64,000 nt of DNA from Candidatus Saccharimonadota bacterium (GCA_016191105.1 JACPPH010000008.1:2667-66666), one strand, 5' to 3'; shown: positions 7,776 through 55,198, numbered from the stretch's first letter. A program made the numbers and translations. The notes: a model not told the origin generated them from the sequence alone.

Positions 7776-8153
7776 TTAAAAGAAGCTCAGCACAAAGTTG
7801 ACAATTACAAATGCCAAAAGCGCTACGACCAAGCCCACAACTGCGTAGATGATGGTATCTTTGGCACTGCGCAAGCCATTTTCGTCGCCCTGGCTCAATA
7901 CATACTTAAGCCCGCCAATTACAATCATAATCACGGCCGCCGCCCCAATAATTATAAGTAGAGTGTTGGTAACTGCAGCAATTCGGCCCGGCAGAGTGCC
8001 GCCGGGGGCACTCCCCTGAGCACAACTCGCCCCAGCAGATACGCCGCCAGCTATATCGCAGCTGGCTCCTGCATAGGTGATAGCGGGAAAAGCCAAAAGT
8101 GTCGCAAAGGCCATGAGGCCTGCGGCAATGCGGTTTGAGTTAATAAATTTCAC
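7776..8153 (-). CDS. VirB2/TrbC-like pilin-type small membrane protein, paralog 1 (alternative starts 8237 or 8114)
   Basis: Signal-peptide-like N-terminus. Two C-terminal hydrophobic helices separated by the GD(E)...AK loop motif shared with the four neighbouring paralogs (…NTLLIIIGAAAVIMIVIGGLKYVLSQGDENGLRSAKDTIIYAVVGLVVALLAFVIVNFV). Confidence 0.6.
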   Translation of the reverse strand: MKFINSNRIAAGLMAFATLLAFPAITYAGASCDIAGGVSAGASCAQGSAPGGTLPGRIAAVTNTLLIIIGAAAVIMIVIGGLKYVLSQGDENGLRSAKDTIIYAVVGLVVALLAFVIVNFVLSFF

Positions 8154-8172
8154 TTGAGTTGAGAGCTCCTTA

Positions 8173-8538
8173 TTACGAGAACTGCCCAAGCACGAAGTTA
8201 ACAATGGCATAGGCCAGCAAGGCCACCACAATACCAATTATCGAGAAGAGGATGGTATCTTTGGCGCCTTTGACTTGCTTTTCGTCGCCTTGACTAAAAA
8301 TGTAGCGAAAGCCACCCACAATAAGCATAATAACTGCCACCACACCAATTACTATCAAGAGGGTATTGGTAATCTGTGCAACCTGGGTGGTTAGCGGGAC
8401 GCTAGAAAGCGAACCTTGAGCCGAGTTAGCGCCCTGTGAGACATCGGGGTTGGCAGCATGCGCGGCTCCGGCAATTGCTACGCCCAAGCCCGCGCCTACG
8501 GTTGCAGTAGTGATTTTAATTCGCGATGAAAGTGACAT
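8173..8538 (-). CDS. VirB2/TrbC-like pilin-type small membrane protein, paralog 2
   Basis: Same architecture and motif. AAGGAG lies 10 nt before the chosen ATG. Confidence 0.65.
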   Translation of the reverse strand: MSLSSRIKITTATVGAGLGVAIAGAAHAANPDVSQGANSAQGSLSSVPLTTQVAQITNTLLIVIGVVAVIMLIVGGFRYIFSQGDEKQVKGAKDTILFSIIGIVVALLAYAIVNFVLGQFS

Positions 8539-8628
8539 ATGAGTGCTTCTCCTTATTAACATAACAATTATACATTGGTTATTGGTAATTATATCGCCGG
8601 CCGTAAAATAAGTAAAGACCGGGGGTGG

Positions 8629-8934
8629 CTACCTAAAAACACCAATTACAAAATTAACTATCAAGAACGATAGCAGGGCAATTACTAGCCCTACAACTGA
8701 ATAAATTATGGCCTCTTTGGCCTGGCGCAAGCGGTTTTCGTCGCCACCGCTGGTTACATAGGTAAAGCCACCATAAATTATGCCAATCACGGCAGCAGCA
8801 CCAACCAAGAAGAGCAGAGTGTTGGTAACGGTTGAGATTATGTCGCCAAAGCCTTTTTGCGGCAAAGCATTTGGCAATGATGGAGCTGCCGCTAGTATTT
8901 TTGTTGCTAGCTTAAACATATCTGTATTATACAT
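8629..8934 (-). CDS. VirB2/TrbC-like pilin-type small membrane protein, paralog 3
   Basis: 101 aa. Contains TLLFLVGAAAVIGIIYGGFTYVTSGGDENRLRQAKEAIIYSVVGLVIALLSFLIVNFV. Confidence 0.65.
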   Translation of the reverse strand: MYNTDMFKLATKILAAAPSLPNALPQKGFGDIISTVTNTLLFLVGAAAVIGIIYGGFTYVTSGGDENRLRQAKEAIIYSVVGLVIALLSFLIVNFVIGVFR

Positions 8935-8959
8935 TAAATATAGTTAGGCCAAAGCAGTC

Positions 8960-9247
8960 TTAAAAAAATTTACTAAAGATAAAGTTAAGAATACTACCAA
9001 CTGCCATAGCAGCAACAAGCCCGCCCACAGATGCCGCCAAAGCTCTTTTGGCAAAAAGCAAACGCCTTTCGTCGCCACCAGATGTTACATACATAAAGCC
9101 GGCGATTATTATAAAGATAACCGACACCACCCCAACAATAAAAAGCAATATAACTACCGCATTATTTAATAGGCCGGCCACAGCACCCTGCCAATTGCCA
9201 GCGTTGATTTGGTCTTGAATGGGTTGGGTGAAAAGAGTAAAGTTCAT
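8960..9247 (-). CDS. VirB2/TrbC-like pilin-type small membrane protein, paralog 4
   Basis: 95 aa with the same two-helix topology. Its ATG overlaps the upstream stop in an ATGA arrangement. Confidence 0.6.
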   Translation of the reverse strand: MNFTLFTQPIQDQINAGNWQGAVAGLLNNAVVILLFIVGVVSVIFIIIAGFMYVTSGGDERRLLFAKRALAASVGGLVAAMAVGSILNFIFSKFF

Positions 9248-9795
9248 GGGAATAGCCCTGTCAATTTAACAATTGCATAGGCGCTTATTAATAGCCCCAG
9301 ACTAATAGCTACCTGTATGAGGTGTTTTTTGGCATTTGCTATTTGATCGGGACTACCACCCGTAGCAATAATAGTGATTATATACCAAAGTATTAGCACA
9401 ACAGCTACGGCTCCAAAAATACCAACTAAATAGTCTGATATCTGATTAATCACATCGTAAAGACTGCCTTGGTTGCACAGCCAGCCCCTTGTAACTACAC
9501 TACAATCTTGGTTGGCATCGAGCTTACTACGGCCAAAAGTCTTCGAGTTAAGAGGCTCAATTTGCTGGCCTGCAAGACAAGTGACATTGCCAGTCTTTTG
9601 ATCAGTAATTGGTGCTCCTGCATCAGAACCATCGGCATTTACACACTTAAAAAGTTGTTGATTTTGATTAGTTGGCTCGGCACCTTGACCGGTCTGTGGC
9701 TCTGCCGCTAGTGCAACAGTCGTACTTGCTAGACTAAGGGCTAGGGCAATAAGCCCAAGTGCAATAAAAGGTATAGAATTTGTATATCTGCGCAT
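9244..9795 (-). CDS. Secreted Cys-containing protein with a pilin-like C-terminal two-helix module, paralog 5
   Basis: Signal peptide, a ~110-aa extracellular region with 4 Cys, then the shared TM-GGSPD-TM module. ATG taken at 9795; the ORF track starts at a TTG at 9804. Confidence 0.6.
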   Translation of the reverse strand: MRRYTNSIPFIALGLIALALSLASTTVALAAEPQTGQGAEPTNQNQQLFKCVNADGSDAGAPITDQKTGNVTCLAGQQIEPLNSKTFGRSKLDANQDCSVVTRGWLCNQGSLYDVINQISDYLVGIFGAVAVVLILWYIITIIATGGSPDQIANAKKHLIQVAISLGLLISAYAIVKLTGLFP

Positions 9796-9842
9796 TGTAA
9801 ACAAGCTTTATTTTACCCCTGTAATCATATATCATAAGGGCA

Positions 9843-12089
9843 ATGTTAGCAAAAACAAAGTTGTTAGCTCTTTGCTGCTTTGCTCTTGTGTTTGGGGCGG
9901 TACTTTTTTTTGTTACCAACGGCCAGAATGCGAGAGCTGAGCTTCCAAAAACTGGATCTTGCGGGCCCACCACTTTAAGCACTATTGGTGCCTGGAAAAC
10001 CCCTTTTAGTATAGACTGCGAAAATTCAAACCCATCACTTGGCGGTGGCGATGCCAAAGAAGACTGGTTCTACAATCCAGACTTAAGTAATGTTCTGGGT
10101 AACTACATAGTGTTTAGTCGCAAAGACACAGCCGCCGTAATGGTTATACAGGCCACAGGACCAAATGCCTACACTCGTTTTTGTTTTAAGTCTCCGGGTG
10201 ATGTTAAGGATGGTATGGCGTTTAACTACGACAACGGCGGTGGATTTTGTGGCGCTATAGAGAGTTTTGACCCCGCGGGTAGCGACAGCACCAATGCCGG
10301 TACGGGTTTTTGTTCAGTAGTAAACAACAAGGATGGTTGTGATTATTATAGCGGCAATGATGGGCCATGGTCTTCAAGTCCCCCCAGAAAATACAGTGGT
10401 AAGGTTGTGGATCGCTCAGCTGACATCTCCAAAGCCCAACAGAGCGAATCTGGAGATGAATGTAACAACCGAGATCAAGCCGGGGCTTTGAGTTTTGTAT
10501 TGTGTCCATTGCTCAAAAGTATCACTGAGTCGGTCGACAAAATAGTAGGGCCTGGTGGGCAACTGCAAAACTTGCTCAAAGTCGAACCACTAGCGTTTCC
10601 TGGCAGTAGTGGTGGCATTAATTTGCAAGCATCTACGCAGAATATAGTTTACCTGGCCGATGGTTTGTATGTGCTTTTGTTTATTGTACTGCTATTTGCC
10701 AATGCTTTTGCTATTGGCATAGACAACTACACCGTTAAAAAGACTTTGCCACGGCTGATTGCGGCAGTGGTATTAACTCAGTTTGCATATATAATTAGTG
10801 CACTTATGATTGACGCTGGCAACATACTTGGTTCTTTGTTGCCCAACTTAATATCGTCGGTTGGAGGAATTGATTTTACCACAGCTATTAATAATCTACT
10901 AGGCACCGGTAGCCAACCCAATCTAAACGGCTTACTGAGTTCGCTTGGAGCATTCTTCTTGGTGTTAGTAGCAGCAATTGCCATTTTGGTGGTACTGATA
11001 ATTGCCATGGTCTATATGATATTCCGAAATCTGTTTATTTATATACTAGTTATTGCCGCGCCCATAGCCTTTGCTGCCATGGTGCTGCCAGGCACTCAAA
11101 AGTACTTTAAGCTGTGGGGAGCCAACTTTATTAAGCTCATATTAATGTTTCCTATAATAACCTCTATACTGGCGGTGGCTTCGGTGCTTTCGGCTGCATT
11201 GGCGCCAATTAATTCCTTACTGGCCGCCCTAATTCCAGTGGTAGCCATAGCATTGATACCCAAAACCTTTAAGTGGAGTGGCGATATTATGGAATTCACA
11301 GCCGGTGCTGTGGCAGGCTATCTTGGAGGGAAGGCCAGCGCCGGCAGGAAGCAAGTGGGTGAGCAGTCCGATAGGCTAGCCGAATCTAGGCGTAACAAAA
11401 TTGCTACATCCAAATTTGGCGATACTCGGCTCGGGAGGTTTGCTTCTGGATCTGGATTTGGTAGTTTAGCAGGAACTCGCAAAAGCAAAGTAAAGCATGC
11501 TTCGAGAGTCGCTGCTGCCCAGTCTGAGGCCGATAAATATGCCAGCCTTTTGTATAGTCGGGAAAAAGCTAAACACCCAGTAGTCAAGGGCTCCAAAAAC
11601 TACGACAAACAAAAGGAGGCTCGGGAAAAAGCTTTGCTAGATCTTTATGATAATTCTAACAGGGCTACACAGTCTAGTTTATTGAGATTGGCCGGTAAAA
11701 GTGGCGACGACAAAGTGGTGTCTTACGCCAAAGGGAAAGATCCAAAATTTGTAGAAGGTGTAATGAACCAAAGCTGGTCGGACTTCGATGCTGTGCCGCA
11801 ACTCAGACCTGGTTTTGATGCCAAGGATCTTAACCCAGAAAAAATTGCAAACTCATCTGGTGGTTCCCAAAAATCAATTATTGAAAAGCATGGCAGCGAT
11901 CTATCAGCAGCAACATTGACAGGTTTGGTTTCGAACGACAGCATCCGAACCAAGCTTGATCCCGCTGTTATTGATTTGCTTAAAGATATTGCCGCTAACA
12001 CCAATACTACCGGAAAGGCGCCCACGAATATTGACCCTGCCGTTAGAACCAAAGTAAATGCTGCCTTAATGGATAAAAACTTACTGTAG
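9843..12089 (+). CDS. T4SS VirB6/TrbL-like polytopic membrane protein (PrgH/ConG-like), 748 aa
   Basis: Signal peptide, a Cys-rich extracellular N-domain, a central block of about 6 TM helices and a hydrophilic C-terminal domain. First gene of a plus-strand operon with translational coupling. Confidence 0.6.
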   Translation: MLAKTKLLALCCFALVFGAVLFFVTNGQNARAELPKTGSCGPTTLSTIGAWKTPFSIDCENSNPSLGGGDAKEDWFYNPDLSNVLGNYIVFSRKDTAAVMVIQATGPNAYTRFCFKSPGDVKDGMAFNYDNGGGFCGAIESFDPAGSDSTNAGTGFCSVVNNKDGCDYYSGNDGPWSSSPPRKYSGKVVDRSADISKAQQSESGDECNNRDQAGALSFVLCPLLKSITESVDKIVGPGGQLQNLLKVEPLAFPGSSGGINLQASTQNIVYLADGLYVLLFIVLLFANAFAIGIDNYTVKKTLPRLIAAVVLTQFAYIISALMIDAGNILGSLLPNLISSVGGIDFTTAINNLLGTGSQPNLNGLLSSLGAFFLVLVAAIAILVVLIIAMVYMIFRNLFIYILVIAAPIAFAAMVLPGTQKYFKLWGANFIKLILMFPIITSILAVASVLSAALAPINSLLAALIPVVAIALIPKTFKWSGDIMEFTAGAVAGYLGGKASAGRKQVGEQSDRLAESRRNKIATSKFGDTRLGRFASGSGFGSLAGTRKSKVKHASRVAAAQSEADKYASLLYSREKAKHPVVKGSKNYDKQKEAREKALLDLYDNSNRATQSSLLRLAGKSGDDKVVSYAKGKDPKFVEGVMNQSWSDFDAVPQLRPGFDAKDLNPEKIANSSGGSQKSIIEKHGSDLSAATLTGLVSNDSIRTKLDPAVIDLLKDIAANTNTTGKAPTNIDPAVRTKVNAALMDKNLL

Positions 12090-12095
12090 GTAAAA

Positions 12096-13103
12096 ATGGG
12101 ACAATACAAAGTACCACAAAACGTAGAGGCCGAAGATAAAATTCTTGGCCCGCTAACTATAAAGCAATTTATATATGTAATAATTGCGCTTATGTGGGGC
12201 TTTATTGCCATCCGTTTGTTGGCTCCATTCAACCTAATAGTAGGAATTATTTTGGCGCTACCAGTCTCTGGCACACTTTTGGCGCTTGGCCTCATTCAAC
12301 GCGAAGGTGTGAGCTTCGAAAACTACTTTTTGGCCTTTATTCGCTTTAATCTTTACCCGCGCAAACGCCAATGGCAAAAAGACGCCAACCCCGACGTGAT
12401 TAAGAACGAACCCAAAAAAGCCGTTGTGCCAGAACTACACAAAAGTCTTAACCAGGGCCAGCTAAAGCAATTGGCGTTTATTGTGGATACGCGTGGTAAC
12501 TACAAAGACCCCAACTTGCAGCTGCCCGACAGCAGCAATATAGCCACTCAAATGAGCTCGAGAGTGGTTGGCCCACAGGCCGCTCAGGGCGAAATTCCAA
12601 ATGTTCAGCCGCTTATGCCAAGCGCGCCCCAAGCAGCTGCTCAAGTATCGGCTCCGCAGGCTACACCAGCCCAAACGGCCCAAGCACAACCAGGCGTGGC
12701 ACCAATTGCGACTCAGCCTGCACCGCAGCCGCCGGCTGCCACCGCCCAAGACGATGTGCTAGACGAAACTAGCACTCAATCGACCGATGTTGGTACTTTG
12801 TTGCAAAACGTAGAGGTTAATTTGCGCAATCGCACGGTCGCTAAAATGAAACAATCGCTAACTGCGGCACCAAAAACCGCCAAGACTGCGCCCACCCTCA
12901 CTAGTGATAGAGCCAATGCTCAAGTTGCCGCCGCCACAGCAAGCCAAGCTACTGCTGGCGGCACCCTGTCTGGCAATCAAGTTGCCACCGCTTTGGCCAG
13001 ATTGAGCCAGCAAAGTGACCACCTATCGGTGCAGCGCTTGGCGGCTCAGGCCGACAAGGCCATTCCGCTTAGCGAAGGCCAAGTGGTACAAGTTAGAGGT
13101 TAG
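12096..13103 (+). CDS. PrgI/VirB3-like T4SS membrane protein with an Ala/Gln/Pro-rich C-terminal extension
   Basis: N-terminus YKVPQNVEAEDKILGPLTIKQFIYV followed by a TM hairpin and ...ENYFLAFIRFNLYPRKRQW, matching the PrgI family pattern. C-terminal low-complexity tail. Confidence 0.65.
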   Translation: MGQYKVPQNVEAEDKILGPLTIKQFIYVIIALMWGFIAIRLLAPFNLIVGIILALPVSGTLLALGLIQREGVSFENYFLAFIRFNLYPRKRQWQKDANPDVIKNEPKKAVVPELHKSLNQGQLKQLAFIVDTRGNYKDPNLQLPDSSNIATQMSSRVVGPQAAQGEIPNVQPLMPSAPQAAAQVSAPQATPAQTAQAQPGVAPIATQPAPQPPAATAQDDVLDETSTQSTDVGTLLQNVEVNLRNRTVAKMKQSLTAAPKTAKTAPTLTSDRANAQVAAATASQATAGGTLSGNQVATALARLSQQSDHLSVQRLAAQADKAIPLSEGQVVQVRG

Positions 13104-13189
13104 AGCAAATTTTGGCTCGGTTTAAACAAAAACACAAGCTTTATCTCAACTCGAGATTTTGATATCATAATAGATTAGCATTTAAGACT

Positions 13190-14074
13190 ATGGCAAAGAA
13201 TAATCAGCCCCAATTAACCCCCGCCCAAACCGAATACTTTGGTTCGATTACCCCACCCAAAAAAACCAAAAACCAGCGTCAGAGCACCCAGTCGCATTTG
13301 CAGTTTTCGGAGATCAAAGACGGCATAGTAGTAATGCGCGACGGTAGTTTACGCATGGTGGTTATGTGTAGCCCCACTAACTTCGACCTCAAAAGTCCGG
13401 CCGAACGCGATGCCATTGAGTATGCTTATCAGGGCTTTCTAAATGGTTTGCACTTTCCAATTCAAATTGTTATTCAGTCGCGCAAAGTTGATCTCGACAA
13501 CTATCTCGAGAACCTCGAGAACTTGCAGTCTAACCAGCCAAACGGGCTGCTGGCTGGACTTATGGACGACTACATATTCAATATTCGGGCTCTGCTCGAA
13601 GAGGTAAATATTATGGACAAAAAGTTCTATGTGGTTGTGCCATACTATACCCAGGTAGTAAGCAAAGAAAACGTCTTTACTGGCATTAAAAAACTGATTG
13701 CTGGTGAGCAACAGGTTACCCAAACCAGCAAACAATATGATCAGCGCCGGCGCGACCTTATACAGCGTACCAACCTGGTGGCCGGTGGCCTAGCCCAAAT
13801 CGGGATTCGTTCAGTCGTTTTGAACACCCAAGAAATTATTGAGCTGTATTACAACTCCTACAACATCGACGAAGCTCAAAACCAAGCCTTGGGCAGTGTG
13901 GATCAGGTAAATACCCCGGTCGTAATGCGCGAAGGCGGCTTAGCTGAGCCACACGGCAACGAACAACCAGAACCCGAGCCCGAAGACTTGTTTGCCGCCG
14001 AGCAACGGCGAGCCCAGTCTGGTTCGTACGGCAGCCAATCGGCTCACCAAGCCAAGAGCGGAGAGCGCAGGTGA
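13190..14074 (+). CDS. T4SS-associated protein with a VirB4 N-terminal-like region
   Basis: EIKDGIVVMRDGSLRMVVMCSPTNFDLKSPAERDAIEYAYQGFLNGLHFPIQIVIQSRKVDL resembles the extreme N-terminal region of VirB4/TrbE/PrgJ ATPases. Its stop overlaps the VirB4 start codon (ATGA). Confidence 0.5.
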   Translation: MAKNNQPQLTPAQTEYFGSITPPKKTKNQRQSTQSHLQFSEIKDGIVVMRDGSLRMVVMCSPTNFDLKSPAERDAIEYAYQGFLNGLHFPIQIVIQSRKVDLDNYLENLENLQSNQPNGLLAGLMDDYIFNIRALLEEVNIMDKKFYVVVPYYTQVVSKENVFTGIKKLIAGEQQVTQTSKQYDQRRRDLIQRTNLVAGGLAQIGIRSVVLNTQEIIELYYNSYNIDEAQNQALGSVDQVNTPVVMREGGLAEPHGNEQPEPEPEDLFAAEQRRAQSGSYGSQSAHQAKSGERR

Positions 14075-15963: not shown

Positions 15964-15990
15964 GCAATGAGCTCAAGGGGACTTTAACAG

Positions 15991-18900
15991 ATGGCTCAGG
16001 GTACAATTACGCCACCAGACGACAATATTGATGACAACTTAATACACGACAAGAATCTCAGCAATTCTGAGTGGTCAGATTTTGTTGACAACCACTCCAC
16101 TTCCGATGGCTCTATCCGTGCTACTGGTCGGGAGGATGCTGCCGACCTACCAACTAGCAATCGTAGCCGGGGACCAGCAGTAGATGAATCAGGGCATATT
16201 ACCGCCGCTGATAATGTCGGCCAAAACAGACAGCAAGGTGGTGGTAGCAGTATGGACATGGCAAAAAAAGTCGCCAAACAAGCCGCCGGTGCAGGTGGTG
16301 GTGGCAGCTCTGCCGCAACCAAAGCCCTGGGCGCCGCAAGCAGCGGTAAGGATGGTGATAAGCCCGAGACTGCAAAAGACAAGGCTGCCGATAAAGCAGC
16401 CGACGCTGCCCAGATAGCCGAAGCAGCAGCCACCATTGAGAGCCCAACTGCCTGGCTAACTCTGGCTAAGCAGGCTAAAAAGCACTGGAGAGCCCTGGCG
16501 CTGGTAAGCATAATTGCACTCTTGCCAGTGTTTATATTGATATTCATTGTATTCTATGCCGCCGCTAACCCGTTTGAGTTCATGAAGGCGGCTATTACCA
16601 ATAAGGCCTTAGGGCGATTTGTAGTCCAGTCAGCCGATGCAATAGGCCTGCCAGGCGCAGCTCAAGTAAGAACCGTACTGGAAAGAGCCGGCTTAGTTAT
16701 AAAGATAGAGCACAGTAATACCGCAATAGCAGCACCCAGCCCCACAACCAAGCCAGACCCCGGCAGCATAGATGACATTCTGGCCCGCATAGACTGGAAA
16801 AAAGCACAATGGCAGTATGGAAACGATATTACCTGTAAATACCGTTTTACATTTGCGCCATTTGTAAATTACGATGGTCAAACTATTAACGAAATCGACA
16901 AGGCTTACGACAAAACGACCGGCAAAGAAGTGCCGCCAGACCAGGCTACAGAAGCTGTAAACACTTGTTTTATGAACAGCTACCCAATGTTTAATATGTC
17001 AACCCGTAACCCCGCAGCAAGAAGTGTTAATAAGTTTTCAGATGCCTTTCTGGCCTACTCAACCGACAAAAGTGAGCTCTATAACAAACCACAATCTGAG
17101 GTAAATAAGGCTCTGCTCGAAAAAACCGTTAAACGGATCGAGGAAAAGCAAGACTCGGCTCCCAAGAGTACCGAACAAAAAGTAACAGACTTCTCCAACA
17201 GAGTATATTCTGAGATTCAGCAGGGCAAAGACCCCGAGGCGCTAGATTATGACGCAATTGCGGCCAGTGTTGGATTGACGTTCCCAAACAACGATCAAGA
17301 CCCCCAGCAAGTTACTGATTCTATGTGTACTTATTATCAAGTATTCACTGCCGAGAATAATGTAGTGAAAGGTATATATAGCCGCCGCGATGCGGCAGTT
17401 CGTAACGCCTTAAAGTTTTTGTCGCTAGCTGGTTCTGGTGCCATGTACCAAAACAGCAACAAAGAGATCAATTATACTGCTGCATCTATAGCCAATTGGG
17501 CAGACGGCGCGGGCTATAGCTTATCGGTAGGCAACGGCAACCAGGGCATTCAAGCCAATGCTGAGTCTATCCACAATAGAGCCTACATTATCAAGCCAGA
17601 AGAAGCTATCCGAATCGGATTGGCGCTAAGACCAGCCTGTGCCTATGCCAACTTTGGCTTTCCGGTACCGATTATACAACAAGTTATAAAAAACGTGGGT
17701 CAAACAGCCGTGTTTAATTTGTACAAAACTTTTAGGGCTACTGTTGTGGCTGAGTCTAGCGGGATCTTTGAGATAGGTAACCCAAACAACTTTGGTTTAA
17801 AAGACATACTGATTGGCAGTTTTAGGCTGGCCGGCGCAGCCTCGGTTACAGGTACAGAGGCAGGTCCACAAAATCTTAACCGACAAGCCATGGGCGTGCA
17901 ACAACTTACCTCAGATTACCTGCGTACGGTTGGTGGTCGGTTCTTGACCGAACAAGAACAGGCCGAGCTCGCTGTTAGAGTAGAAGACAATGCACGACAA
18001 AACGAACAAAATAAAAGCTTTTTGGCCAGAATATTCGACACTGCTAGCCCGCGTTCAATTGCAAGCCAGCTGGCCAGCCGAAACACCAGCTGGCGTGATA
18101 CTGCTACTTACATGGCCTCAACAACTGCATCGCTGGTAAATATACCTAAACTTTTTACAGACACATCTAGCCTGGTGGCTTATGTGGCCACAGGCCAAAA
18201 AAATACAGCTTTTGCAGCCAGCGATGATATTGCCAATTACTTCAAGGTAGACCTAGCTGGATTCAGCAGTAATGAACTAAAAAGTACCAATCTTCTAGAC
18301 AATGCCCGCGCAATTGAAAAGCTAAAAAAAGATATTAGCGACCCTAATGACATTCGCACTAAACAAATGCAATATTATGACGCATGCTTTAAGAAAGATA
18401 TTCCAAACCCTATTCTCTTTACCCGTATTCCTGAAGACCCCAAGGATATTAGCAACACCGATCCTGCCATTCAAAAGAAATATCTTTACATAAAAGACGG
18501 TTTTAAAATAGGCGGGGACGGCAATCAGCTTACTTACAATCAAGATGTGGATTCGGACTTTTTTAAGGCCTATACTTGTGAGACTACGATGACCAACAGC
18601 AACCCGCTAAACATGCCAAATATAAATCTAGATTTTGCGAGAAAATATCGTTTGTATGTTTACTACAAATCACAAGTGGAGTTGCTACAAAATTTATCCA
18701 GCGATACAGCCCCGAAAGGGTTTTATGCAGGCTCTAGCAAGGGCGGTGCGGGCAGCGGGCAGCGTAATCCCGGCGGCTTTATTTGGCCTATAGGAGGAAA
18801 GACAGTATTTAGCAGATGTGGCAATGGTCATGGTTACCAAGCTGTAGATATTGCTTATGTTGGCAATCTCAAGCCAGACATATACGCGGTAGCCGATGGC

Positions 18901-19203
18901 GAAGTGGTGCTGGCCGATAACAGCAACAGCAGCTCTGGCTATGGTAACTACCTGATCATTAAGCAGAATGACGGCCTATACACCCTCTACGCCCACAATA
19001 GCGAGGTTACGGTAGCCAAAGGAGACCGTGTGAGCCAAGGTGACGTGGTGGCTATTGGTGGCTCGAGTGGCGATTCGAGCGGCCCCCACCTACACTTCGA
19101 AGTCCGTACCGAAGACATAAATGGCCCCAAGCAAAACCCGGGTGACTACTTGCCAGATACACCAGACGGGCAAAATACTCAAACTTACTGCGAGAGTAAT
19201 TAA
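15991..19203 (+). CDS. Large membrane-anchored cell-wall hydrolase with a C-terminal M23 (LytM) peptidase domain (VirB1/PrgK-like role)
   Basis: One TM segment near residue 175. The C-terminus carries M23 motifs (HGYQAVDIAY...YGNYLIIKQNDGLYTLYAHN...GPHLHFEV). Confidence 0.75.
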   Translation: MAQGTITPPDDNIDDNLIHDKNLSNSEWSDFVDNHSTSDGSIRATGREDAADLPTSNRSRGPAVDESGHITAADNVGQNRQQGGGSSMDMAKKVAKQAAGAGGGGSSAATKALGAASSGKDGDKPETAKDKAADKAADAAQIAEAAATIESPTAWLTLAKQAKKHWRALALVSIIALLPVFILIFIVFYAAANPFEFMKAAITNKALGRFVVQSADAIGLPGAAQVRTVLERAGLVIKIEHSNTAIAAPSPTTKPDPGSIDDILARIDWKKAQWQYGNDITCKYRFTFAPFVNYDGQTINEIDKAYDKTTGKEVPPDQATEAVNTCFMNSYPMFNMSTRNPAARSVNKFSDAFLAYSTDKSELYNKPQSEVNKALLEKTVKRIEEKQDSAPKSTEQKVTDFSNRVYSEIQQGKDPEALDYDAIAASVGLTFPNNDQDPQQVTDSMCTYYQVFTAENNVVKGIYSRRDAAVRNALKFLSLAGSGAMYQNSNKEINYTAASIANWADGAGYSLSVGNGNQGIQANAESIHNRAYIIKPEEAIRIGLALRPACAYANFGFPVPIIQQVIKNVGQTAVFNLYKTFRATVVAESSGIFEIGNPNNFGLKDILIGSFRLAGAASVTGTEAGPQNLNRQAMGVQQLTSDYLRTVGGRFLTEQEQAELAVRVEDNARQNEQNKSFLARIFDTASPRSIASQLASRNTSWRDTATYMASTTASLVNIPKLFTDTSSLVAYVATGQKNTAFAASDDIANYFKVDLAGFSSNELKSTNLLDNARAIEKLKKDISDPNDIRTKQMQYYDACFKKDIPNPILFTRIPEDPKDISNTDPAIQKKYLYIKDGFKIGGDGNQLTYNQDVDSDFFKAYTCETTMTNSNPLNMPNINLDFARKYRLYVYYKSQVELLQNLSSDTAPKGFYAGSSKGGAGSGQRNPGGFIWPIGGKTVFSRCGNGHGYQAVDIAYVGNLKPDIYAVADGEVVLADNSNSSSGYGNYLIIKQNDGLYTLYAHNSEVTVAKGDRVSQGDVVAIGGSSGDSSGPHLHFEVRTEDINGPKQNPGDYLPDTPDGQNTQTYCESN

Positions 19204-20198
19204 TGAACAGGCGGATTACCATTACTATCATAAGCATTGTTGCGGTGCTAGCTCTAGCTGTCATAATAGTTATGCTTATATTAGTAACCCGGCAGCCTAG
19301 CACATTCAGCCTCAATGCTCAGATTGCCGACAGTGGTCGCATCCGCTTCGCTCAAGCTACCGCAAAAGGGCTGGTTTATACTAAATCCAACAACCTGTAT
19401 CTTATTAAAGACGGCACGCCTAGCTTGCTTGGCGCCCTGCCGGAATTTGATAGCTTTCAGGTTAATCAAGATGCAACTTTTGGAGCTGTCAAAAACAATT
19501 CCACTGTTCTAATTTACAACCTGTCCTCCTGGAAAGTTGTAGCTCAGTTTGAAGCTAAGTTCTTCAGCTGGATTGACAGCAATACATACCTGTATGGCAC
19601 TTTTGTTACGCCACCAAAAATTGCTGGTGGTGCCGAAAATTTATCTCAAAATCTTACTGTTAAAGATACCTCGGGTAGGCTTATAAATACCTATACTACA
19701 CCATTCTCGCCGATTGGCTTGCTACTAAGTAGCCCCACCAGCCTATATATATCAGCCAGCGGAAGTAAAGGCCTGCTTGAACTACAAATTTACAGGCTCG
19801 ACAGAACAAACGGCAGCCTGCAGACGATTCAACAGTTGCCAAATTTTAGTTTTAACCAATATAATCAATATGAGGCGGCACTATTACAAACTGGATCCAA
19901 TAGCGGTCCTGTGCAGCCATTCTCAACTAACGGCCTAAAAATCACCTCGCTGTTTCAGCCCTTATCTAACGTAGTTATGGTTAGCAAAGCCAGGCTTCTG
20001 TATGTAACTAGTAGAAATAACGTTGAGCTCCATAGTTTTGACCTAACCAACAATAAAGATCAGCTAATAGGCTATATTTCGATACCTGCTAGCACTGTAG
20101 TAAGTGGGGTGTATGTGATAAATAGTAGAATGTACATTACAGCTCAAAATCAAATCTTCTTCATCGGTTTAGACCCAATAAAGGGCTTGACACAATGA
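19203..20198 (+). CDS. Bitopic membrane protein (N-terminal TM plus a beta-rich periplasmic domain), T4SS operon member
   Basis: MNRRITITIISIVAVLALAVIIVMLILV is the N-terminal TM anchor. Confidence 0.5.
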   Translation: MNRRITITIISIVAVLALAVIIVMLILVTRQPSTFSLNAQIADSGRIRFAQATAKGLVYTKSNNLYLIKDGTPSLLGALPEFDSFQVNQDATFGAVKNNSTVLIYNLSSWKVVAQFEAKFFSWIDSNTYLYGTFVTPPKIAGGAENLSQNLTVKDTSGRLINTYTTPFSPIGLLLSSPTSLYISASGSKGLLELQIYRLDRTNGSLQTIQQLPNFSFNQYNQYEAALLQTGSNSGPVQPFSTNGLKITSLFQPLSNVVMVSKARLLYVTSRNNVELHSFDLTNNKDQLIGYISIPASTVVSGVYVINSRMYITAQNQIFFIGLDPIKGLTQ

Positions 20199-20310
20199 AC
20201 TATAGAGCGGCTGCCGTAGTAGATGATGCTCCGAGGGTAATTGAGGTGGGTTGCGCAAAGCCTGTTGCGCTTTGCGCAGCTACTCTTTTATCCATCCAGA
20301 GGCTCTTGCA

Positions 20311-22725
20311 ATGAGTCTGTTGCAAGCTGTTAGCCCTAAATTCATTAGGCCTATAGTTATGTTGGTTACTATATTATTTGTTTTAGTTTCTCCACTCCAG
20401 GCCGTTGCCGCCGCATCGCCCTCCTGGCGATACGAAGCCGAAAGAGCTAACTGGTGGGACAAAACCGACCTGCCGTGCGGCAAAACCTCAATTAATACGT
20501 CGGGCAGTTCTACGCTACCGGCAGACTTCCCTGAGCCAGCCCGAACAATCCTAACTAATGCCGCCAATACCGCCGGCACCAATGCTAACGTATTAGCCGC
20601 TATCTACATGAACGAACATGGTATAAACGAGTATCGCACCATACCCACCGACCGCAACGCCCTAAACGGCGGCGCGGTAAGCAGTGCGGGGGCGACCGGA
20701 CCGTTCCAAGTTCTCCCCGAACTGTGGAAGAGGGAATGGGGTGATATTAACAATTTCGAGGATGCTGCCAAAGCCGCCGCCCAAAATTGGCTCAAAAACG
20801 CCGCTAAAATAGGCCCTACGCCAGAGATCGGCGACCCCAACAACCCTAAAGAAGGTACGGTTGTCTTTGCATTTAAGACCTATAATCCTGGAAGTCAAAG
20901 TTATATAGAGGCCGGCCTTAAACGCTACCAGTCTTTGGGTGGCAGCACAAACAACGGGCAAACTTCTGGCCCCGCTGCTTTTTTAAACACCAAAGACCAG
21001 TTTAAGCCAGTTGCCCGAGCCGCTAGTGATGCTGGCAAGGTATTCTTTGTAGGCGACTCTATAGGTAGCGCCATTAAAGACAAGCTAAAAGAACAATACC
21101 CCAACATTGAATTTGACACCCTGCCCGGCCGTGGCTTAACTGGTGGGCCTGCTCAGTTTCAGCCCAATGGCATAGATGTGCTTAAGGCTAGTACCGACAA
21201 AATTAAGAACGCCGACACCGTGGTATTAGAGCTTGGCACAAACGCTTACGACGCCGCAAACTTTTCGGCCGATGTCGACAATGCTATTAACATAATCAAA
21301 CAGGCTAAAGACAGCGTGAAAATATACTGGATCGATTTGGCCGCCAATAGTCCGCAGTTTCAAAAGATAAACACCGAGGTCTATGGGCCTATGAATAAGA
21401 CCCTAATTGATAAGTCTAATTCTGGGAATTTTAAGCTAATATCGTGGTTTAAAACTGTGTACCCCGAAGGAGACCCAAGCCAGCCAGCACCTACTCTGGC
21501 CGATTCTAATAAACTGTTCAAAGCCGGCGACAATGTTCACCCGTCCAATCCAGATGGGGTCAATGCCTACGCTAGCCTGGTGGCCAATAACCTCAAAAGT
21601 GGTGGTGGCACCAACAATACCGTCAGCGCGTCGAACAATTGCCCGGCAGCTAATAGTGGTGGCTCGGGTAACTGCATAGACGATGGGGCAATTATGAAGG
21701 TGAATGATGCCACCAAGCTGGGTGAGGCAATTAATAAATACATAGAGCAAAACGGAGGAAAAGATGCACCCTTAAAAACCCTGGGCGCAAAGTTTGTAAG
21801 TGGTGCTATACGGCAAGGCGTGAATCCGTTTCTGATTGTTTCGATCGCGCAAAGAGAATCAAGCTTCGGTAAGGCAGTGCCAGGCAACAATAGTGAGTCG
21901 TACAACTCATTTGGGCTAACCGCCGCAAGCGGACAACCCTCAGTGTCAACCAACGGTAGAAACTGGTATAAATGGCCTAGCTGGGAACTTAGCCTAGATG
22001 GCGGTGGTAGCGAGTTTGATGAGCCCACTTATCTGAAAAAAAATTACCTAGATAAGGGCTTAACAAAGGTTGACCAAATTATGATGAAATATGCACCCCC
22101 AAGTGATGGCAATGATACGGCTGGTTACATCCAGGGCATTAAAGATGGCAACAAGAAAATGGTTGACTTGGCCGGCGATGCCATTAGTTGTGATGGCGGC
22201 GGCCAAGCCGTGCGATCGCTCAAAAATGCTACTGTGGTTAAATCTTTTGACGGCCCGCCTATTAATGTAAGCTCGATCGTAGTTCACTATACCGCTGGCC
22301 AATCTGCAGATGGTGCTAGTTTTGTTAATGCGATTAAGTCCAATAAAAGCTGCGGGCCTCAAGGCTGCTCGGTTCAGGTGTGGATTTCAGACCAAGGCCA
22401 GGTTTATCAGTTGGTAGACCCACTCAACACCTTTACTGAAAATGTTAATGACTTTAACAAGCACTCCATAGGCATAGAGATCGACGGCGCAGATGAAAAC
22501 GAGGTTATGAATAATAGTGTTCAGTTTGGAGCCGTAATCACGACAATCAAAGACTTGATGGAGATATTTAACATTAAGAATGAAATGGTTTGTGCCGAGC
22601 CCAACAGTAAGGGTATATTTGGTCATATGGAAGCCAACGATTGCATGAATCCGGTTCCGGGGCAAGGCCATCGCGACCCAGGAGCAAATTATATGGCAAA
22701 AATTAGACAGGCCTTAGGACAATGA
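20311..22725 (+). CDS. Multidomain peptidoglycan hydrolase (lysozyme-like + SGNH/GDSL hydrolase + SLT-like + Amidase_2/PGRP domains); ORF begins at 20251
   Basis: GDSIGS block of SGNH hydrolases. IAQRESSFG lytic-transglycosylase-like motif. C-terminal IVVHYTAG...SIGIEI Amidase_2 signature. Signal or TM N-terminus. AGAGG RBS before the ATG at 20311. Confidence 0.7.
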   Translation: MSLLQAVSPKFIRPIVMLVTILFVLVSPLQAVAAASPSWRYEAERANWWDKTDLPCGKTSINTSGSSTLPADFPEPARTILTNAANTAGTNANVLAAIYMNEHGINEYRTIPTDRNALNGGAVSSAGATGPFQVLPELWKREWGDINNFEDAAKAAAQNWLKNAAKIGPTPEIGDPNNPKEGTVVFAFKTYNPGSQSYIEAGLKRYQSLGGSTNNGQTSGPAAFLNTKDQFKPVARAASDAGKVFFVGDSIGSAIKDKLKEQYPNIEFDTLPGRGLTGGPAQFQPNGIDVLKASTDKIKNADTVVLELGTNAYDAANFSADVDNAINIIKQAKDSVKIYWIDLAANSPQFQKINTEVYGPMNKTLIDKSNSGNFKLISWFKTVYPEGDPSQPAPTLADSNKLFKAGDNVHPSNPDGVNAYASLVANNLKSGGGTNNTVSASNNCPAANSGGSGNCIDDGAIMKVNDATKLGEAINKYIEQNGGKDAPLKTLGAKFVSGAIRQGVNPFLIVSIAQRESSFGKAVPGNNSESYNSFGLTAASGQPSVSTNGRNWYKWPSWELSLDGGGSEFDEPTYLKKNYLDKGLTKVDQIMMKYAPPSDGNDTAGYIQGIKDGNKKMVDLAGDAISCDGGGQAVRSLKNATVVKSFDGPPINVSSIVVHYTAGQSADGASFVNAIKSNKSCGPQGCSVQVWISDQGQVYQLVDPLNTFTENVNDFNKHSIGIEIDGADENEVMNNSVQFGAVITTIKDLMEIFNIKNEMVCAEPNSKGIFGHMEANDCMNPVPGQGHRDPGANYMAKIRQALGQ

Positions 22726-23744
22726 GATCCAGACGCTTATTATTGCTAGTATTGGCGGCTCTAGTTATATTTATTGCTTTGGTAGCGTTAATCATAACGA
22801 TGCTAAGTAGGCCGTCAGTCAAAACAACCCAGCTGTTTGATACTGGTTCTTACTACCACATGGTAACCAACAACGGTGTGGTTACTTTTATCGACAACAA
22901 CAGTAATATCCAACGCTACAATGAAAGCTTGGCCAAAAAAGAGTTTATTGGCAGCGTAGCTATTGAGTACAAGCCGAAGCTGGCTGAAACAGGAGAATAC
23001 ATAGCCACCACAAAACCCAGCGGCCAAGCCTCCACTACCATAAGTAGACTGGATGTCTACAACGGCAATAGCTTGGATGGAAAAACAATCGTACCTTACA
23101 ACTATGTTAAGTGGGGGTTTGGCAACCAGCTACTTGGACTTTTGCCGCCCAACCGAGCTAGCCAGGGAGAAGGAGGGCCTTTCGAATCAACCATATATAG
23201 CGGCCAGCTCAACATAATAAATGCGGCTCAGCCAGGCCAAGCCTTAACTGCTTCGGATAGCAATATCCGGTTCGAAACAATTGCCTATGCCAACCAAGAC
23301 AAGCTAATAACTACCTCTACACAGACAGATGGCAGCATTACCCTAACCACCCTTGACGCCCGTAGCTGGCAACCTCTCGGGCAACAACGCCTGCCAAGTT
23401 TGGTTGAATATTACCAGGCAAAGCAGTTTTTCTTGTACCGCGAAAACAATAACTCCAACTTAGTGGTTTCTATGAACGCCGGCCAGCAGTTTACCACCAA
23501 GCTTCAAACTTCACCGTTTCTGGCTTACCCATTAGGAGGTAAGAGGCTAGCCGCTATAATAAAAAACAACGACCAAGCAAAATTAGTAGTATATAATTAC
23601 GAAGCCAACAAAACCACCAAGGAGATGGTATTGCCAGATTATGTATTCAAACCCAACCAGCTTGTTACTACAGATAAAAATGTATATATTTCTACAAAAG
23701 GTGGAATTTATATGGTAGAAAACTTTTTGGACGGCTTAAAATGA
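22722..23744 (+). CDS. Bitopic membrane protein (beta-propeller-like extracytoplasmic domain), T4SS operon member
   Basis: N-terminal TM MRSRRLLLLVLAALVIFIALVALIITML. Start overlaps the upstream stop (ATGA). Confidence 0.5.
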   Translation: MRSRRLLLLVLAALVIFIALVALIITMLSRPSVKTTQLFDTGSYYHMVTNNGVVTFIDNNSNIQRYNESLAKKEFIGSVAIEYKPKLAETGEYIATTKPSGQASTTISRLDVYNGNSLDGKTIVPYNYVKWGFGNQLLGLLPPNRASQGEGGPFESTIYSGQLNIINAAQPGQALTASDSNIRFETIAYANQDKLITTSTQTDGSITLTTLDARSWQPLGQQRLPSLVEYYQAKQFFLYRENNNSNLVVSMNAGQQFTTKLQTSPFLAYPLGGKRLAAIIKNNDQAKLVVYNYEANKTTKEMVLPDYVFKPNQLVTTDKNVYISTKGGIYMVENFLDGLK

Positions 23745-24355
23745 GAAGGTGGCTGATTGTGCTGGGCATACTGCTAACTATAGCTGTGGCGGGCGGGGCT
23801 TTGGCAGTTTATAGCTTTAACCGATCTGGCAAGTTTCGGGTGGTTGGCGGCTCTCCAAGCAACAAAAGCACCAATGTGCCGCCAGAGAACACGATTACAC
23901 TTGTGTTCTCTCAAGACCTCGACACCAACCAAGCCCAAACCTTTTTACAAACATCGCCCAGCCAGCTATTTGTAATGGAGTTGCAAAAAAATAAGTTAGT
24001 GCTAACACCGGCCAAGCCTTTGCAAGAAAAATCTCAATATTTGATTTCAATAAACAATATACGATCGACTCAGGGCCAGCAGACCAGCACTAGTATTTTA
24101 TTTACAACTGGAGTTAATAATTCGCCAAGAGCACAATTTATTAGGCTTTTACCATTCAGTGGCAGTGACTTTAATATATTCTATAACGAAAATTTAGACG
24201 GGTTCACGGTTCAAATATCGACCAAGTCGATGGACCAAGCCAAAGCCCAGGCTCTGCAGTACTTTCGAGACAACAATGTAGACCCTAACAAGCAAAGAAT
24301 TGATTTTCAGCAGCTGAGATACCTGCAGGGCAAAGGTGCTCCACCGCCCAACTAA
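23741..24355 (+). CDS. Bitopic membrane protein with an Ig-like (SbsA/Big-type) domain
   Basis: N-terminal TM, then VVGGSPSNKSTNVPPENTITLVFSQDLD, typical of the start of a bacterial Ig-like domain. ATGA coupling with the upstream gene. Confidence 0.45.
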   Translation: MRRWLIVLGILLTIAVAGGALAVYSFNRSGKFRVVGGSPSNKSTNVPPENTITLVFSQDLDTNQAQTFLQTSPSQLFVMELQKNKLVLTPAKPLQEKSQYLISINNIRSTQGQQTSTSILFTTGVNNSPRAQFIRLLPFSGSDFNIFYNENLDGFTVQISTKSMDQAKAQALQYFRDNNVDPNKQRIDFQQLRYLQGKGAPPPN

Positions 24356-24368
24356 TCACAAACTAAAC

Positions 24369-24641
24369 TTATCTAATTAATACTCTTATACTTTTTAGCT
24401 GCTGGTCGGAGCACAATATTTGACCCGTTTTAAGCACTATCTCGGCAGTATGTAGCCTGATTTCGCTGGCAGCCACCGAGCTTTCTACGGCCAGGGTCGC
24501 TGTTTGGTGCTGCAAACGAACAACCCTAGCGCTAACCCCTGTAATATCTAGGGTAGCTTTTTTTATGGCCTCCATAGCGGTTAGTTGGTTGGAGCCGATT
24601 GAGCTAGAGCGCCTTTGCAAGATATCTTTAATACCTTCCAT
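24369..24641 (-). CDS. DUF721/DciA-like small protein
   Basis: 90-aa protein immediately downstream of recF, the usual position of the DUF721 gene (yaaB / dciA-like). Assignment rests on position and size only. Confidence 0.45.
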   Translation of the reverse strand: MEGIKDILQRRSSSIGSNQLTAMEAIKKATLDITGVSARVVRLQHQTATLAVESSVAASEIRLHTAEIVLKTGQILCSDQQLKSIRVLIR

Positions 24642-24643
24642 TA

Positions 24644-25717: not shown

Positions 25718-25719
25718 AC

Positions 25720-26820: not shown

Positions 26821-27117
26821 TATTCAAACCTCCTCTTACTAATTACTGTTGTATTAGATATATATAGGTAGCAGCAGTATAGGGTGGTGTGGATAGTATG
26901 TATAACACTAGTTTTGGCTTTTATATAAGTATTTATTAAATACTTATATAATGTAAAACTTGCGCATTTAGGGTGTATAAAAAAAACAAAAGCACTTAGT
27001 TCTACACAATTACCAAAAATCTTAAATGTCAATATGTGTTTAAATTGTGTAGAAAGCTTAATCATGTAAACAGACTGTACACAACTTATCAACATAGTTA
27101 TCCACAAATCTAACATG
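26821..27117. other. Predicted oriC segment (dnaA-dnaN intergenic): DnaA boxes plus an AT-rich unwinding element
   Basis: Perfect TTATCCACA at 27098-27106. CTATCCACA (rc) at 26888-26896. Further 2-mismatch boxes at 27000-27008 and 27044-27052. AT-rich tract at 26920-26960. Confidence 0.7.
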
Positions 27118-28482: not shown

Positions 28483-28644
28483 AACTCACCCCCTAAACAC
28501 GCATTATTACTTAACTATATATAACAATCATATGGTTTTCCACAGTTTTTTGCAAAAAAAGCTCTGAGTACCCTAAAAGGGGTGGATAACTTAGGACTTA
28601 TACCGATTGATTTACTAGGTAATATCAGGTACAATATTGAGATT
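28483..28644. promoter_or_regulatory. dnaA upstream region carrying additional DnaA boxes (second oriC segment / dnaA autoregulation)
   Basis: TTTTCCACA at 28535-28543 and TTATCCACC (rc) at 28582-28590, both one mismatch from the consensus. Confidence 0.55.
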
Positions 28645-38979: not shown

Positions 38980-39930
<951 letters not shown>

Positions 39931-39933
39931 GCT

Positions 39934-44459: not shown

Positions 44460-44465
44460 TTTTGT

Positions 44466-45284: not shown

Positions 45285-45285
45285 A

Positions 45286-48405: not shown

Positions 48406-48407
48406 CG

Positions 48408-50521: not shown

Positions 50522-50531
50522 TGGGTGAGCT

Positions 50532-51683: not shown

Positions 51684-51695
51684 TTTCAACTAAAG

Positions 51696-52700: not shown

Positions 52701-52754
52701 TTTGAATCCTCCATTATTGAAAAACTGTAAGCTAAGATATAATTATACTATCAC

Positions 52755-55137: not shown

Positions 55138-55146
55138 TTGCGGGTT

Positions 55147-55179
55147 AGTGGCGATCCTAATGAGCTTAGGATCGCCACT
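55147..55179. terminator. Bidirectional terminator, perfect 14-bp stem
   Basis: AGTGGCGATCCTAA-tgagc-TTAGGATCGCCACT lies between two convergent genes. Confidence 0.7.
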
Positions 55180-55198
55180 TCACCCTCCTGTGAGCTAG

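Follow-up and report, generated by a model that had tools for sequence, protein, structure and literature searches.

The window analysed here, a 64,000-nucleotide stretch of DNA from Candidatus Saccharimonadota bacterium (GCA_016191105.1 JACPPH010000008.1:2667-66666), carries at positions 7776–24355 what is very probably a vertically inherited, chromosomally fixed type IV secretion system (T4SS) of Saccharibacteria, serving contact-dependent exchange with a host bacterium. The identity of the system as the chromosomal T4SS of Saccharibacteria is, taken on its own, the claim that we hold most firmly. In the explanation that fits best, the system belongs to the Patescibacteria VirB4 clade and derives from the monoderm MPF-FATA conjugation machinery. 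The locus is already known from papers published in 2020–2025, and the present copy is one more instance, not a new kind of system. McLean et al. 2020 (PMC7427843) found that Saccharibacteria share a conserved T4SS region, which encodes homologues of VirB4, VirB6 and VirB2, a member of the PrgI family and an array of small proteins with signal peptides. Wang et al. 2023, in Cell (PMC10633639), showed by transposon sequencing (Tn-seq) that SEML1_0006-0019 of Southlakia epibionticum are essential for epibiotic growth, and reported a Gram-positive-like composition, unusual pilins, and no coupling or relaxase proteins. Quinonero-Coronel et al. 2025 (PMC12102498) surveyed 2,474 Patescibacteria virB4 genes and found MPF-FATA ancestry, TrsD, PrgI, VirB6 and VirB2 arrays of 2–11 genes, with VirB8 and relaxases scarce and dnaA/dnaN/rnpA close by; a 2025 review lists the Patescibacteria systems as a new T4SS subgroup. 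This is the only T4SS reported as essential for the growth of its owner, it is conserved throughout Saccharibacteria, and it is a leading candidate for how ultrasmall epibionts feed on or manipulate their hosts. The value of the present copy is that of a clean, well-delimited example, along with comparative details useful for studies of host range or origin: the swapping of hydrolase domains, a degree of conservation in VirB4 above that of DnaA, and a similar pilin-bearing module in Bacillota.

The features of the locus and the adjoining replication genes are as follows (TM, transmembrane segment; ORF, open reading frame):

7776–8237, minus strand: pilin paralogue 1, VirB2/TrbC-like (PF18895, E 2e-11), with a signal-like segment and a two-TM hairpin
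8173–8562, minus strand: pilin paralogue 2 (PF18895, E 3e-12, and TrbC, E 2e-6, both over the gathering score)
8629–8934, minus strand: pilin paralogue 3 (PF18895, E 3e-12)
8960–9247, minus strand: pilin paralogue 4 (PF18895, E 6e-6, exactly at the gathering score)
9244–9804, minus strand: pilin paralogue 5 (PF18895, E 2e-13; NCBIfam Mbov_0395 pilin-like family, E 3e-7)
9843–12089, plus strand: VirB6-like polytopic membrane protein, 748 aa (TrbL/VirB6, E 0.007; CD3337/EF1877, E 1e-5; both sub-threshold)
12096–13103, plus strand: PrgI/VirB3-like protein with two TMs (PF12666, E 1.4e-15, over the gathering score)
13190–14074, plus strand: TrsD-like protein, a putative free-standing VirB4 N-terminal domain, 294 aa, soluble (NCBIfam and fold search)
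14071–15963, plus strand: VirB4-type ATPase (NCBIfam conju_CD1110, 382.8 bits vs. a cut-off of 325; PDB 4ag5, 5e-52)
15991–19203, plus strand: giant bitopic wall hydrolase, 1070 aa, with a C-terminal M23 peptidase (PF01551, E 1e-24)
19203–20198, plus strand: N-anchored bitopic protein, 331 aa (TM 9–27)
20249–20281, plus strand: terminator- or attenuator-like hairpin, 13-bp stem and T-run (fold −45.6 kcal/mol, z −2.66)
20311–22725, plus strand: second wall hydrolase, ~800 aa (Amidase_2, E 5e-15; the mechanical ORF starts at 20251)
22722–23744, plus strand: N-anchored bitopic protein with no assigned fold, 340 aa (TM 7–25; no family match)
23741–24355, plus strand: N-anchored bitopic Ig-like protein, 204 aa (Big_5 PF13205, E 3e-10; TM 5–23)
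24369–28482, minus strand: DciA-like gene, recF, dnaN and dnaA (Pfam), which are context and not part of the machine

A preliminary description of this DNA had proposed a divergent pair of units with five VirB2/TrbC-like genes on the minus strand. The five ORFs were indeed found there, and in a Pfam scan 5/5 reached the gathering score of the T4SS_pilin family PF18895 (E 2e-13 to 6e-6), with weak TrbC/VirB2 matches in three of them. According to topology prediction, each of the five begins with a signal-like segment and ends with a two-TM hairpin, the loop of which carries a common S-x-G-D-E motif (T-G-G-S in one paralogue). Pairwise identity of the pilin cores ranges from 27 to 66%, the upper value being that of paralogue 3 vs. 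paralogue 1, and paralogue 2 is the best conserved across related loci (up to 81% identity). Paralogue 5 differs in that a Cys-containing insert of ~90 aa separates its signal peptide from its pilin core. The true start of paralogue 1 is probably internal, near 8114–8153, because its ORF overlaps the next gene; the start of paralogue 5 is likely the ATG at 9795, which leaves a spacer of ~47 bp to the plus-strand ATG at 9843.

The gene list that the same description gave for the plus strand was confirmed almost item by item by the ORF map and family scans. The PrgI/VirB3-like, VirB4 and M23 assignments all rest on the matches listed above, and the “multidomain hydrolase” was borne out by its Amidase_2 match together with weak glucosaminidase/SLT and GDSL signals. 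The VirB4, the database version of which begins at 14074, is of the monoderm conjugative type as judged by both conju_CD1110 and PDB 4ag5. The PrgI/VirB3-like protein has a ~240-aa Ala/Gln/Pro-rich tail, and its relatives have a median length of 322 aa. The VirB6-like protein combines one N-terminal TM with five clustered TMs (275–476), six in all, a Cys-rich N-terminal ectodomain and a 270-aa hydrophilic tail.

The gene preceding virB4 had been described as a VirB4-N-like ORF. A Pfam scan of 13190–14074 gave no match, and the assignment comes from other sources. In NCBIfam, the protein aligned to positions 92–233 of VirB4_plasma, an 894-residue model of Mycoplasma integrative and conjugative element (ICE) VirB4 (E 4e-5), and to TrsD (E 1e-3); among 47 homologues, 27 matched TrsD and 21 matched VirB4_plasma. 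The adjacent VirB4 aligns to VirB4_plasma from position 282 (its alignment to the CD1110 model starts at position 167), thus indicating that the two genes are jointly collinear with a full-length VirB4. An AlphaFold model built on the 47-sequence alignment had a predicted local distance difference test (pLDDT) score of 61, with a core of 70–86. When this model was compared with the PDB by Foldseek, the 14 best matches were all R388 TrwK/VirB4 (best E 1.8e-4); four of the 14 passed E 0.001, and nothing else fell under E 0.6. On these NCBIfam and fold matches we accept the earlier call; the published name for such a protein is TrsD homologue.

An argument for a vertically inherited system comes from comparison with 80 GTDB species loci, one genome per species, most of them titled Saccharibacteria or Saccharimonadia. 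The preliminary description had proposed comparing synteny with Saccharibacteria, and the results clearly showed that a common layout is kept in these 80 loci: pilins on the minus strand, VirB6-PrgI-TrsD-VirB4 on the plus strand, then, further on, recF-dnaN-dnaA on the minus strand. The TrsD-like gene is present in 78/80 loci; where enough upstream sequence was available, PrgI was found in 46/46 and a VirB6 positional orthologue in 44/46, and the replication block lies within 10 kb in 45 of the 53 loci with enough downstream sequence. Hsp20 and a ComF-like phosphoribosyltransferase (PRTase) recur on the pilin side, and in distant Saccharimonadia the cluster occupies one and the same chromosomal site, flanked by hsp20/ComF-like/tRNA-Ser and by recF-dnaN-dnaA. 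The VirB4 itself is 100% identical to a protein of an NCBI Saccharibacteria metagenome-assembled genome and 77–86% identical to the other 119 cluster representatives among the matches listed; the search returned at least 8000 significant candidates, and the named ones among the 120 listed are Saccharibacteria, Patescibacteria or uncultured bacteria. Identity to the 80 Saccharimonadia loci is 60–85%. In the same loci, the median identity is 64% for VirB4 vs. 45% for DnaA, 36.5% for DnaN and 33% for RecF. VirB4 is thus more conserved than the replication proteins beside it, which points to purifying selection at the level of core genes and to a vertically inherited core function. In the closest GTDB relative (L001 5561–15055; VirB4 identity 85%), TrsD and VirB4 together have the opposite orientation to the rest of the cluster, at their usual place and with intact ORFs; no inverted repeats flanking the L001 inversion were found, and it could be real or a co-assembly artefact.

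The closest published counterpart is the SEML1_0004-0019 cluster of S. epibionticum, nearly all genes of which scored as essential by Tn-seq (PMC10633639). Both loci share tRNA-Ser, the ComF-like PRTase, Hsp20, the pilin array, a VirB6-like protein, PrgI (~300 aa), a 294-aa TrsD-like protein, VirB4, a giant bitopic hydrolase of ~1100 aa, a second multi-hydrolase, an Ig-like exported protein (SEML1_0005, an Ig-like/PEGA-domain protein and the counterpart of 23741–24355) and recF-dnaN-dnaA, and neither cluster has a coupling protein or relaxase. There are also differences. S. epibionticum has six pilins and two VirB6-like proteins, with the non-essential NTF2-like SEML1_0012 between them, vs. 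five, one and none in the window; its hydrolases are an M15-type DD-peptidase and a protein with two lysozyme domains and a cysteine protease, whereas those of the window are M23 and a putative SGNH/glucosaminidase/Amidase_2 combination. Present only in the window are two genes on the pilin side, for a sugar-binding and a MauE-like protein, and two further bitopic proteins. By analogy with S. epibionticum, for the orthologues of which the requirement has been shown, the present locus would be needed for growth on a host.

In the same way, the locus has the features of the Patescibacteria-clade T4SS (PMC12102498) and of the TM7x locus (PMC7427843): similarity in VirB4, TrsD upstream of virB4, PrgI/VirB3 and VirB6-like proteins, a pilin array, no relaxase or coupling protein found in the cluster, and a chromosomal position near dnaA/dnaN. 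Nothing essential differs from the Patescibacteria-clade systems; the swapping of hydrolase domains, the conservation of VirB4 above that of DnaA and the pilin-bearing loci outside the candidate phyla radiation are not spelled out in that work. The likeness of gene order to Gram-positive systems, noted earlier, held as well, as the order VirB6-like, VirB3-like, VirB4, wall hydrolase is common to the monoderm MPF-FATA systems (pCF10 PrgH-PrgI-PrgJ-PrgK-PrgL; the CD1110-type conjugative transposon of C. difficile; TrsD of pGO1), which also share with the window a CD1110-family VirB4, a TrsD-type protein and the lack of outer-membrane core components. Unlike them, the window locus is chromosomally fixed and has no coupling protein, relaxase, oriT or recognisable VirB8/NTF2 protein, and it does have VirB2-like pilins, which PMC12102498 and PMC12857230 call absent from classical Gram-positive systems.

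Related modules were also found outside Patescibacteria. The 898-kb replicon of Pontibacillus sp. ALD_SL1 (NZ_CP062975.1; L085 7062–17054), a free-living member of Bacillota, has the same module with its gene order kept. It comprises a pair of VirB2-like pilins, of which one bears the Mbov_0395 family annotation, an 8-TM protein (779 aa), a PrgI-like protein (116 aa, two TMs), a TrsD-like protein (274 aa; 32% identity, E 8e-31), a VirB4 of the CD1110 family (37% identity) and an M23 protein (1050 aa). Its differences from the window are pilin genes that point the same way as the operon, a short PrgI, and a T4CP-like fragment (T4CP, type IV coupling protein) ~7 kb away. Models of the Mycoplasma ICE families Mbov_0395 (pilin-like) and Mbov_0397 (VirB4) are matched by the window's largest pilin and its TrsD-like protein, respectively. 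Taken together with the Pontibacillus module, these matches indicate that pilin-bearing monoderm T4SS modules exist outside Patescibacteria, a point relevant to the published idea of pilin co-option from diderm systems. The VirB6-PrgI-(TrsD)-VirB4 core occurs in actinobacterial relatives too, in a Miltoncostaea locus (L087 7090–13953) and on the Embleya plasmid discussed below.

The wall-directed part of the plus-strand unit begins with the giant hydrolase, which occupies the PrgK/VirB1 position and consists of a disordered cytoplasmic head, a TM at 169–187, a ~750-aa ectodomain of no assigned type, and a C-terminal M23 domain with both the HxH and YAH motifs. Its positional equivalents are 790–1276 aa long in 41/43 loci, with a TM near residue 100–180. 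For the C-terminal domain of 42 such sequences, VanY/M15 was detected in 9, M23 in 8, M74 in 2 and amidase in 1, and no domain was detected in about half. The giant protein is followed in related loci by two to five N-anchored proteins and then recF; the sequences diverge fast while the architecture persists. A phage-tail lysozyme domain occurs in 34/58 of the following proteins, others having glucosaminidase, M23, C39-like, NlpC/P60, GDSL, CHAP, SLT or amidase domains. As read from these domain assignments, the catalytic domains of the hydrolases are swapped between lineages. The second hydrolase of the window gave sub-threshold signals for glucosaminidase (E 1e-3, glucosaminidase/SLT-like) and Lipase_GDSL (E 0.02), and its predicted layout is an N-terminal anchor, a possible SGNH/GDSL domain, a glucosaminidase/SLT-like domain and the C-terminal Amidase_2; PDB sequence searches with the protein and with its middle segment returned nothing.

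Three proteins had been described as bitopic proteins in the VirB8 position. Each does have one N-terminal TM, but Pfam and NCBIfam family scans revealed no VirB8/PrgL/TraM similarity in any of the three, and the label is positional only. When the 1751 ORFs of the 80 loci were searched iteratively with hidden Markov models (HMMs) of the three proteins, matches were limited to the closest relative and a few Big_5 proteins. For 19203–20198, about 4 full-length homologues and 9 matches at E ≤ 0.001 were obtained among 1.84 billion representative proteins. Its single-sequence model (pLDDT 50), usable only for secondary-structure class and local propeller-like matches, is all-beta, and Foldseek matched it, locally, to beta-propellers only; the ectodomain is thus predicted to be all-beta and probably propeller-like, and the protein is lineage-specific. 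For 22722–23744 a homologue was detected only in the closest relative, L001, so that this protein is lineage-specific.

The gene content, protein families, membrane topology, synteny and strong conservation are observed features of the locus; the way in which the machine works can be proposed from established T4SS biology. The PrgI/VirB3-like protein, the TrsD-like VirB4 N-domain and the VirB4 ATPase would form a motor on the cytoplasmic face of a VirB6-like membrane channel, with VirB3 and the VirB4 N-domain tethering VirB4 to the channel and VirB4 energising both pilin extraction and polymerisation and the passage of substrate. The five Sec-exported two-TM VirB2-like pilins would be pulled out of the membrane and assembled by polymerisation into a pilus or tube on the cell surface. 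The two large anchored hydrolases (M23; SGNH/glucosaminidase/amidase) may open peptidoglycan, either that of the epibiont itself or that of the host, and the three anchored ectodomain proteins could be lineage-specific surface or scaffold parts. From its context and the literature, the machine most probably acts at the epibiont–host interface in the export of effectors or the import of host macromolecules, and not in plasmid or ICE transfer; conjugation as its role is very unlikely.

Pilus assembly, the substrate and the direction of transport are thus proposed by analogy, and the literature offers both effector delivery and nucleic-acid import as the function. Import would be a functional variant of the interpretation preferred here, in which a ComB/Ced-like device draws host DNA, RNA or cytoplasmic material in through the pilus or tube, and we regard it as possible, though the less likely choice. 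Since Saccharibacteria do not synthesise nucleotides and S. epibionticum can do without ComEC, reviewers have proposed the T4SS as the source of nucleotides (PMC11665869); a 2026 preprint describes tubular structures, possibly T4SS pili, at a parasite–host interface along with the acquisition of host RNA; and the heavy investment in wall hydrolases fits the breaching of a host wall. The VirB4 also has weak NCBIfam matches to the archaeal DNA importers CedB/CedD, but these reflect generic P-loop similarity and are far under the cut-offs. Moreover, the cluster has no recognisable component for DNA or RNA binding or processing, and the direction of transport is not yet established for any member of Patescibacteria. 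Export of effectors, or adhesion and contact, takes up most of the probability that import leaves.

A quite different, and very improbable, assignment is that of a Ptl-like toxin exporter, which would secrete the five small Sec-signal proteins as its cargo, in the manner of the subunits of pertussis toxin. It goes back to the 2020 proposal for TM7x, when McLean et al. (PMC7427843) compared an array of 4–6 small signal-peptide proteins flanked by T4SS genes with ptx/ptl. Like Bordetella pertussis Ptl and Brucella VirB, the window locus has no VirD4-type coupling protein and would not be conjugative. Those systems, however, are diderm, possess a VirB7–VirB10 core, receive substrates that cross the inner membrane by Sec, and are related to the locus in the sequence of VirB4 only; VirB7–10 homologues, the Ptl-type diderm core, were not found in the cluster. 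All five small proteins reach the T4SS_pilin gathering score and, like VirB2/TrbC, have at the C-terminus a conserved two-TM hairpin whose loop motif they share, the reported similarity to pertussis toxin S1 is only 11% (PMC7427843), and later work re-annotated the array as VirB2-like pilins.

The least probable alternative is a decayed or cryptic ICE, the integrase, relaxase and coupling protein of which would lie just outside the region examined; we rejected it on the grounds of synteny, missing hallmark genes and missing att repeats. What speaks for it is that the VirB4 exceeds the cut-off of the CD1110 family, which is named for conjugative transposons, that a tRNA-Ser gene lies 3.5 kb to the left, and that the relatives found in the plasmid collection (best VirB4 matches at 30–39% identity) include a true conjugative module. 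The latter, on the actinobacterial Embleya plasmid (L084 8122–18438), comprises VirB6-like, PrgI, VirB4, T4CP, replication-relaxation and NlpC/P60 proteins, with the T4CP and the replication-relaxation protein adjoining VirB4, and shows what the window is missing. Indeed, no ORF of at least 90 aa scanned in the 64-kb window matched the coupling protein/VirD4, relaxase or integrase families, the remaining ORFs of this size being housekeeping, polysaccharide biosynthesis or without a match. A tblastn probe made from an actinobacterial T4CP found nothing in the window or in the 80 related loci, although the same probe does find T4CP genes in the Firmicute and Actinobacterial comparison loci. No flanking att-like repeats and no repeat of the tRNA-Ser end were detected in the window. 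Outside it, no VirD4, relaxase or integrase gene occurs within 9.5 kb to the right, where a restriction-modification pair and housekeeping genes are found, or within 2.4 kb to the left, where groES and a hypothetical gene lie; the left extension was limited to 2.4 kb by short matching public contigs. The tRNA-Ser gene belongs to the conserved synteny in S. epibionticum as well. The cluster has the same GC content as its flanks, its VirB4 is more conserved than the replication proteins, and even in species with a DnaA identity of only ~45% it is found at this chromosomal site, with the same housekeeping genes on either side.

The conserved site, matching composition and lack of mobile-element hallmarks fit an apparatus fixed in the chromosome better than an ICE, in agreement with the published conclusion (PMC10633639; PMC12102498). 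The preliminary description had reached the same view, and its statement holds that the window has no integrase or other hallmark of a mobile element. Its further statement that the module has no relaxase or coupling ATPase is true of the locus and the window but does not stand for the genome as a whole.

The following points weigh against the preferred explanation. The absence of VirD4 and relaxase covers the window and ~12 kb of flanks, and a distant gene for either may lie elsewhere in the genome; in many Patescibacteria, VirD4-like genes are indeed far from virB4 (PMC12102498). The VirB6 assignment, made earlier, is upheld by the six TMs and the conserved position, but the HMM matches (TrbL, CD3337/EF1877) stay sub-threshold, and the assignment relies on these together with topology and position. 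A profile–profile comparison of the TrsD-like protein with the VirB4 family by hhalign was negative, the profiles from the fetched loci being shallow (effective sequence number 2–3), and the VirB4-N relationship therefore rests on NCBIfam and on the medium-confidence model. Finally, a VirB8-like (NTF2) component was not found, and SEML1_0012 has no counterpart at the corresponding position.

Two linked ideas may be put forward on this basis, which we offer jointly and tentatively, as a pair that is more likely to fail than to hold. The first is that a conserved VirB6-PrgI-TrsD-VirB4 motor is coupled to a fast-swapping host-interface cassette of pilin paralogues, hydrolases and lineage-specific ectodomain proteins, where the variable hydrolase parts would be the C-terminus of the giant protein (M23, M15/VanY, M74, amidase) and the second hydrolase (lysozyme, glucosaminidase, GDSL, CHAP, NlpC/P60, amidase). 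If so, the combination of cassette parts would be matched to the wall chemistry of the host and would set the host range. The second is that the pilus-bearing monoderm T4SS may be an older or exchanged module, found also in Bacillota (Pontibacillus) and in Mycoplasma ICEs, and not an invention of Patescibacteria by means of borrowed diderm pilins.

The plus-strand genes had been described as a translationally coupled operon, which turned out to be true in part. Overlaps of 1–4 nt occur at 4/8 junctions and two further gaps are of 6 and 27 nt, but there are also a gap of 86 nt before the TrsD-like gene and one of ~112 nt before the second hydrolase, the latter with a hairpin and T-run; because of these two gaps, the operon is only partly translationally coupled. 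The mechanical ORF of the second hydrolase takes in the hairpin (20249–20281) at its start, and translation probably begins instead at the ATG at 20311. Interruption or attenuation of the plus-strand unit at this point is possible, and the unit may be read as two or three transcripts. Two copies of ACAAGCTTTAT-N17-ATATCATAA, at 9801–9837 and 13134–13170, lie directly upstream of the VirB6-like and TrsD-like start codons. We do not claim this motif as a regulatory site: related loci do not keep it, and the window shows no enrichment of the 11-mer. It is either a promoter-like element restricted to the lineage or a chance occurrence.

At its right end the cluster is separated from the convergent DciA-like gene by 13 bp, and recF, dnaN and dnaA follow. 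DnaA boxes were found at 26888, 27086, 27098, 28475, 28536 and 28581, forming clusters (26888–27106 and 28475–28589) on either side of dnaA, one in the AT-rich dnaA-dnaN spacer (26821–27117) and the other upstream of dnaA. These clusters are likely to mark oriC, and a 98-aa ORF at 26820–27116 is probably not a gene but part of it. As recF-dnaN-dnaA and the DnaA-box clusters adjoin the locus, the earlier term “origin-proximal”, beside dnaA-dnaN-recF, is justified.

Further along the window, a 713-aa ORF at 36814–38955 has no Pfam or NCBIfam match and is preceded by one of 174 aa (36300–36824) with a weak RodZ-like match. A surface-polysaccharide cluster at 38983–58681 encodes epimerases, a Wzm/Wzt-type ABC exporter, FkbM methyltransferases and many GT2/GT4 glycosyltransferases, along with a Wzy-like ligase and a GDP-mannose dehydratase; the low GC content at 41–50 kb (0.38–0.41) suggests that this is a variable or exchanged segment. 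Just past the right end of the window (L081 11338–13308) are an EcoO109I-type restriction enzyme and a cytosine methyltransferase with a MerR domain. This pair adjoins a low-GC region after tRNA-Asn (60399–60473) with PLD-like, NUDIX and unassigned genes, and together they may constitute a small defence islet.

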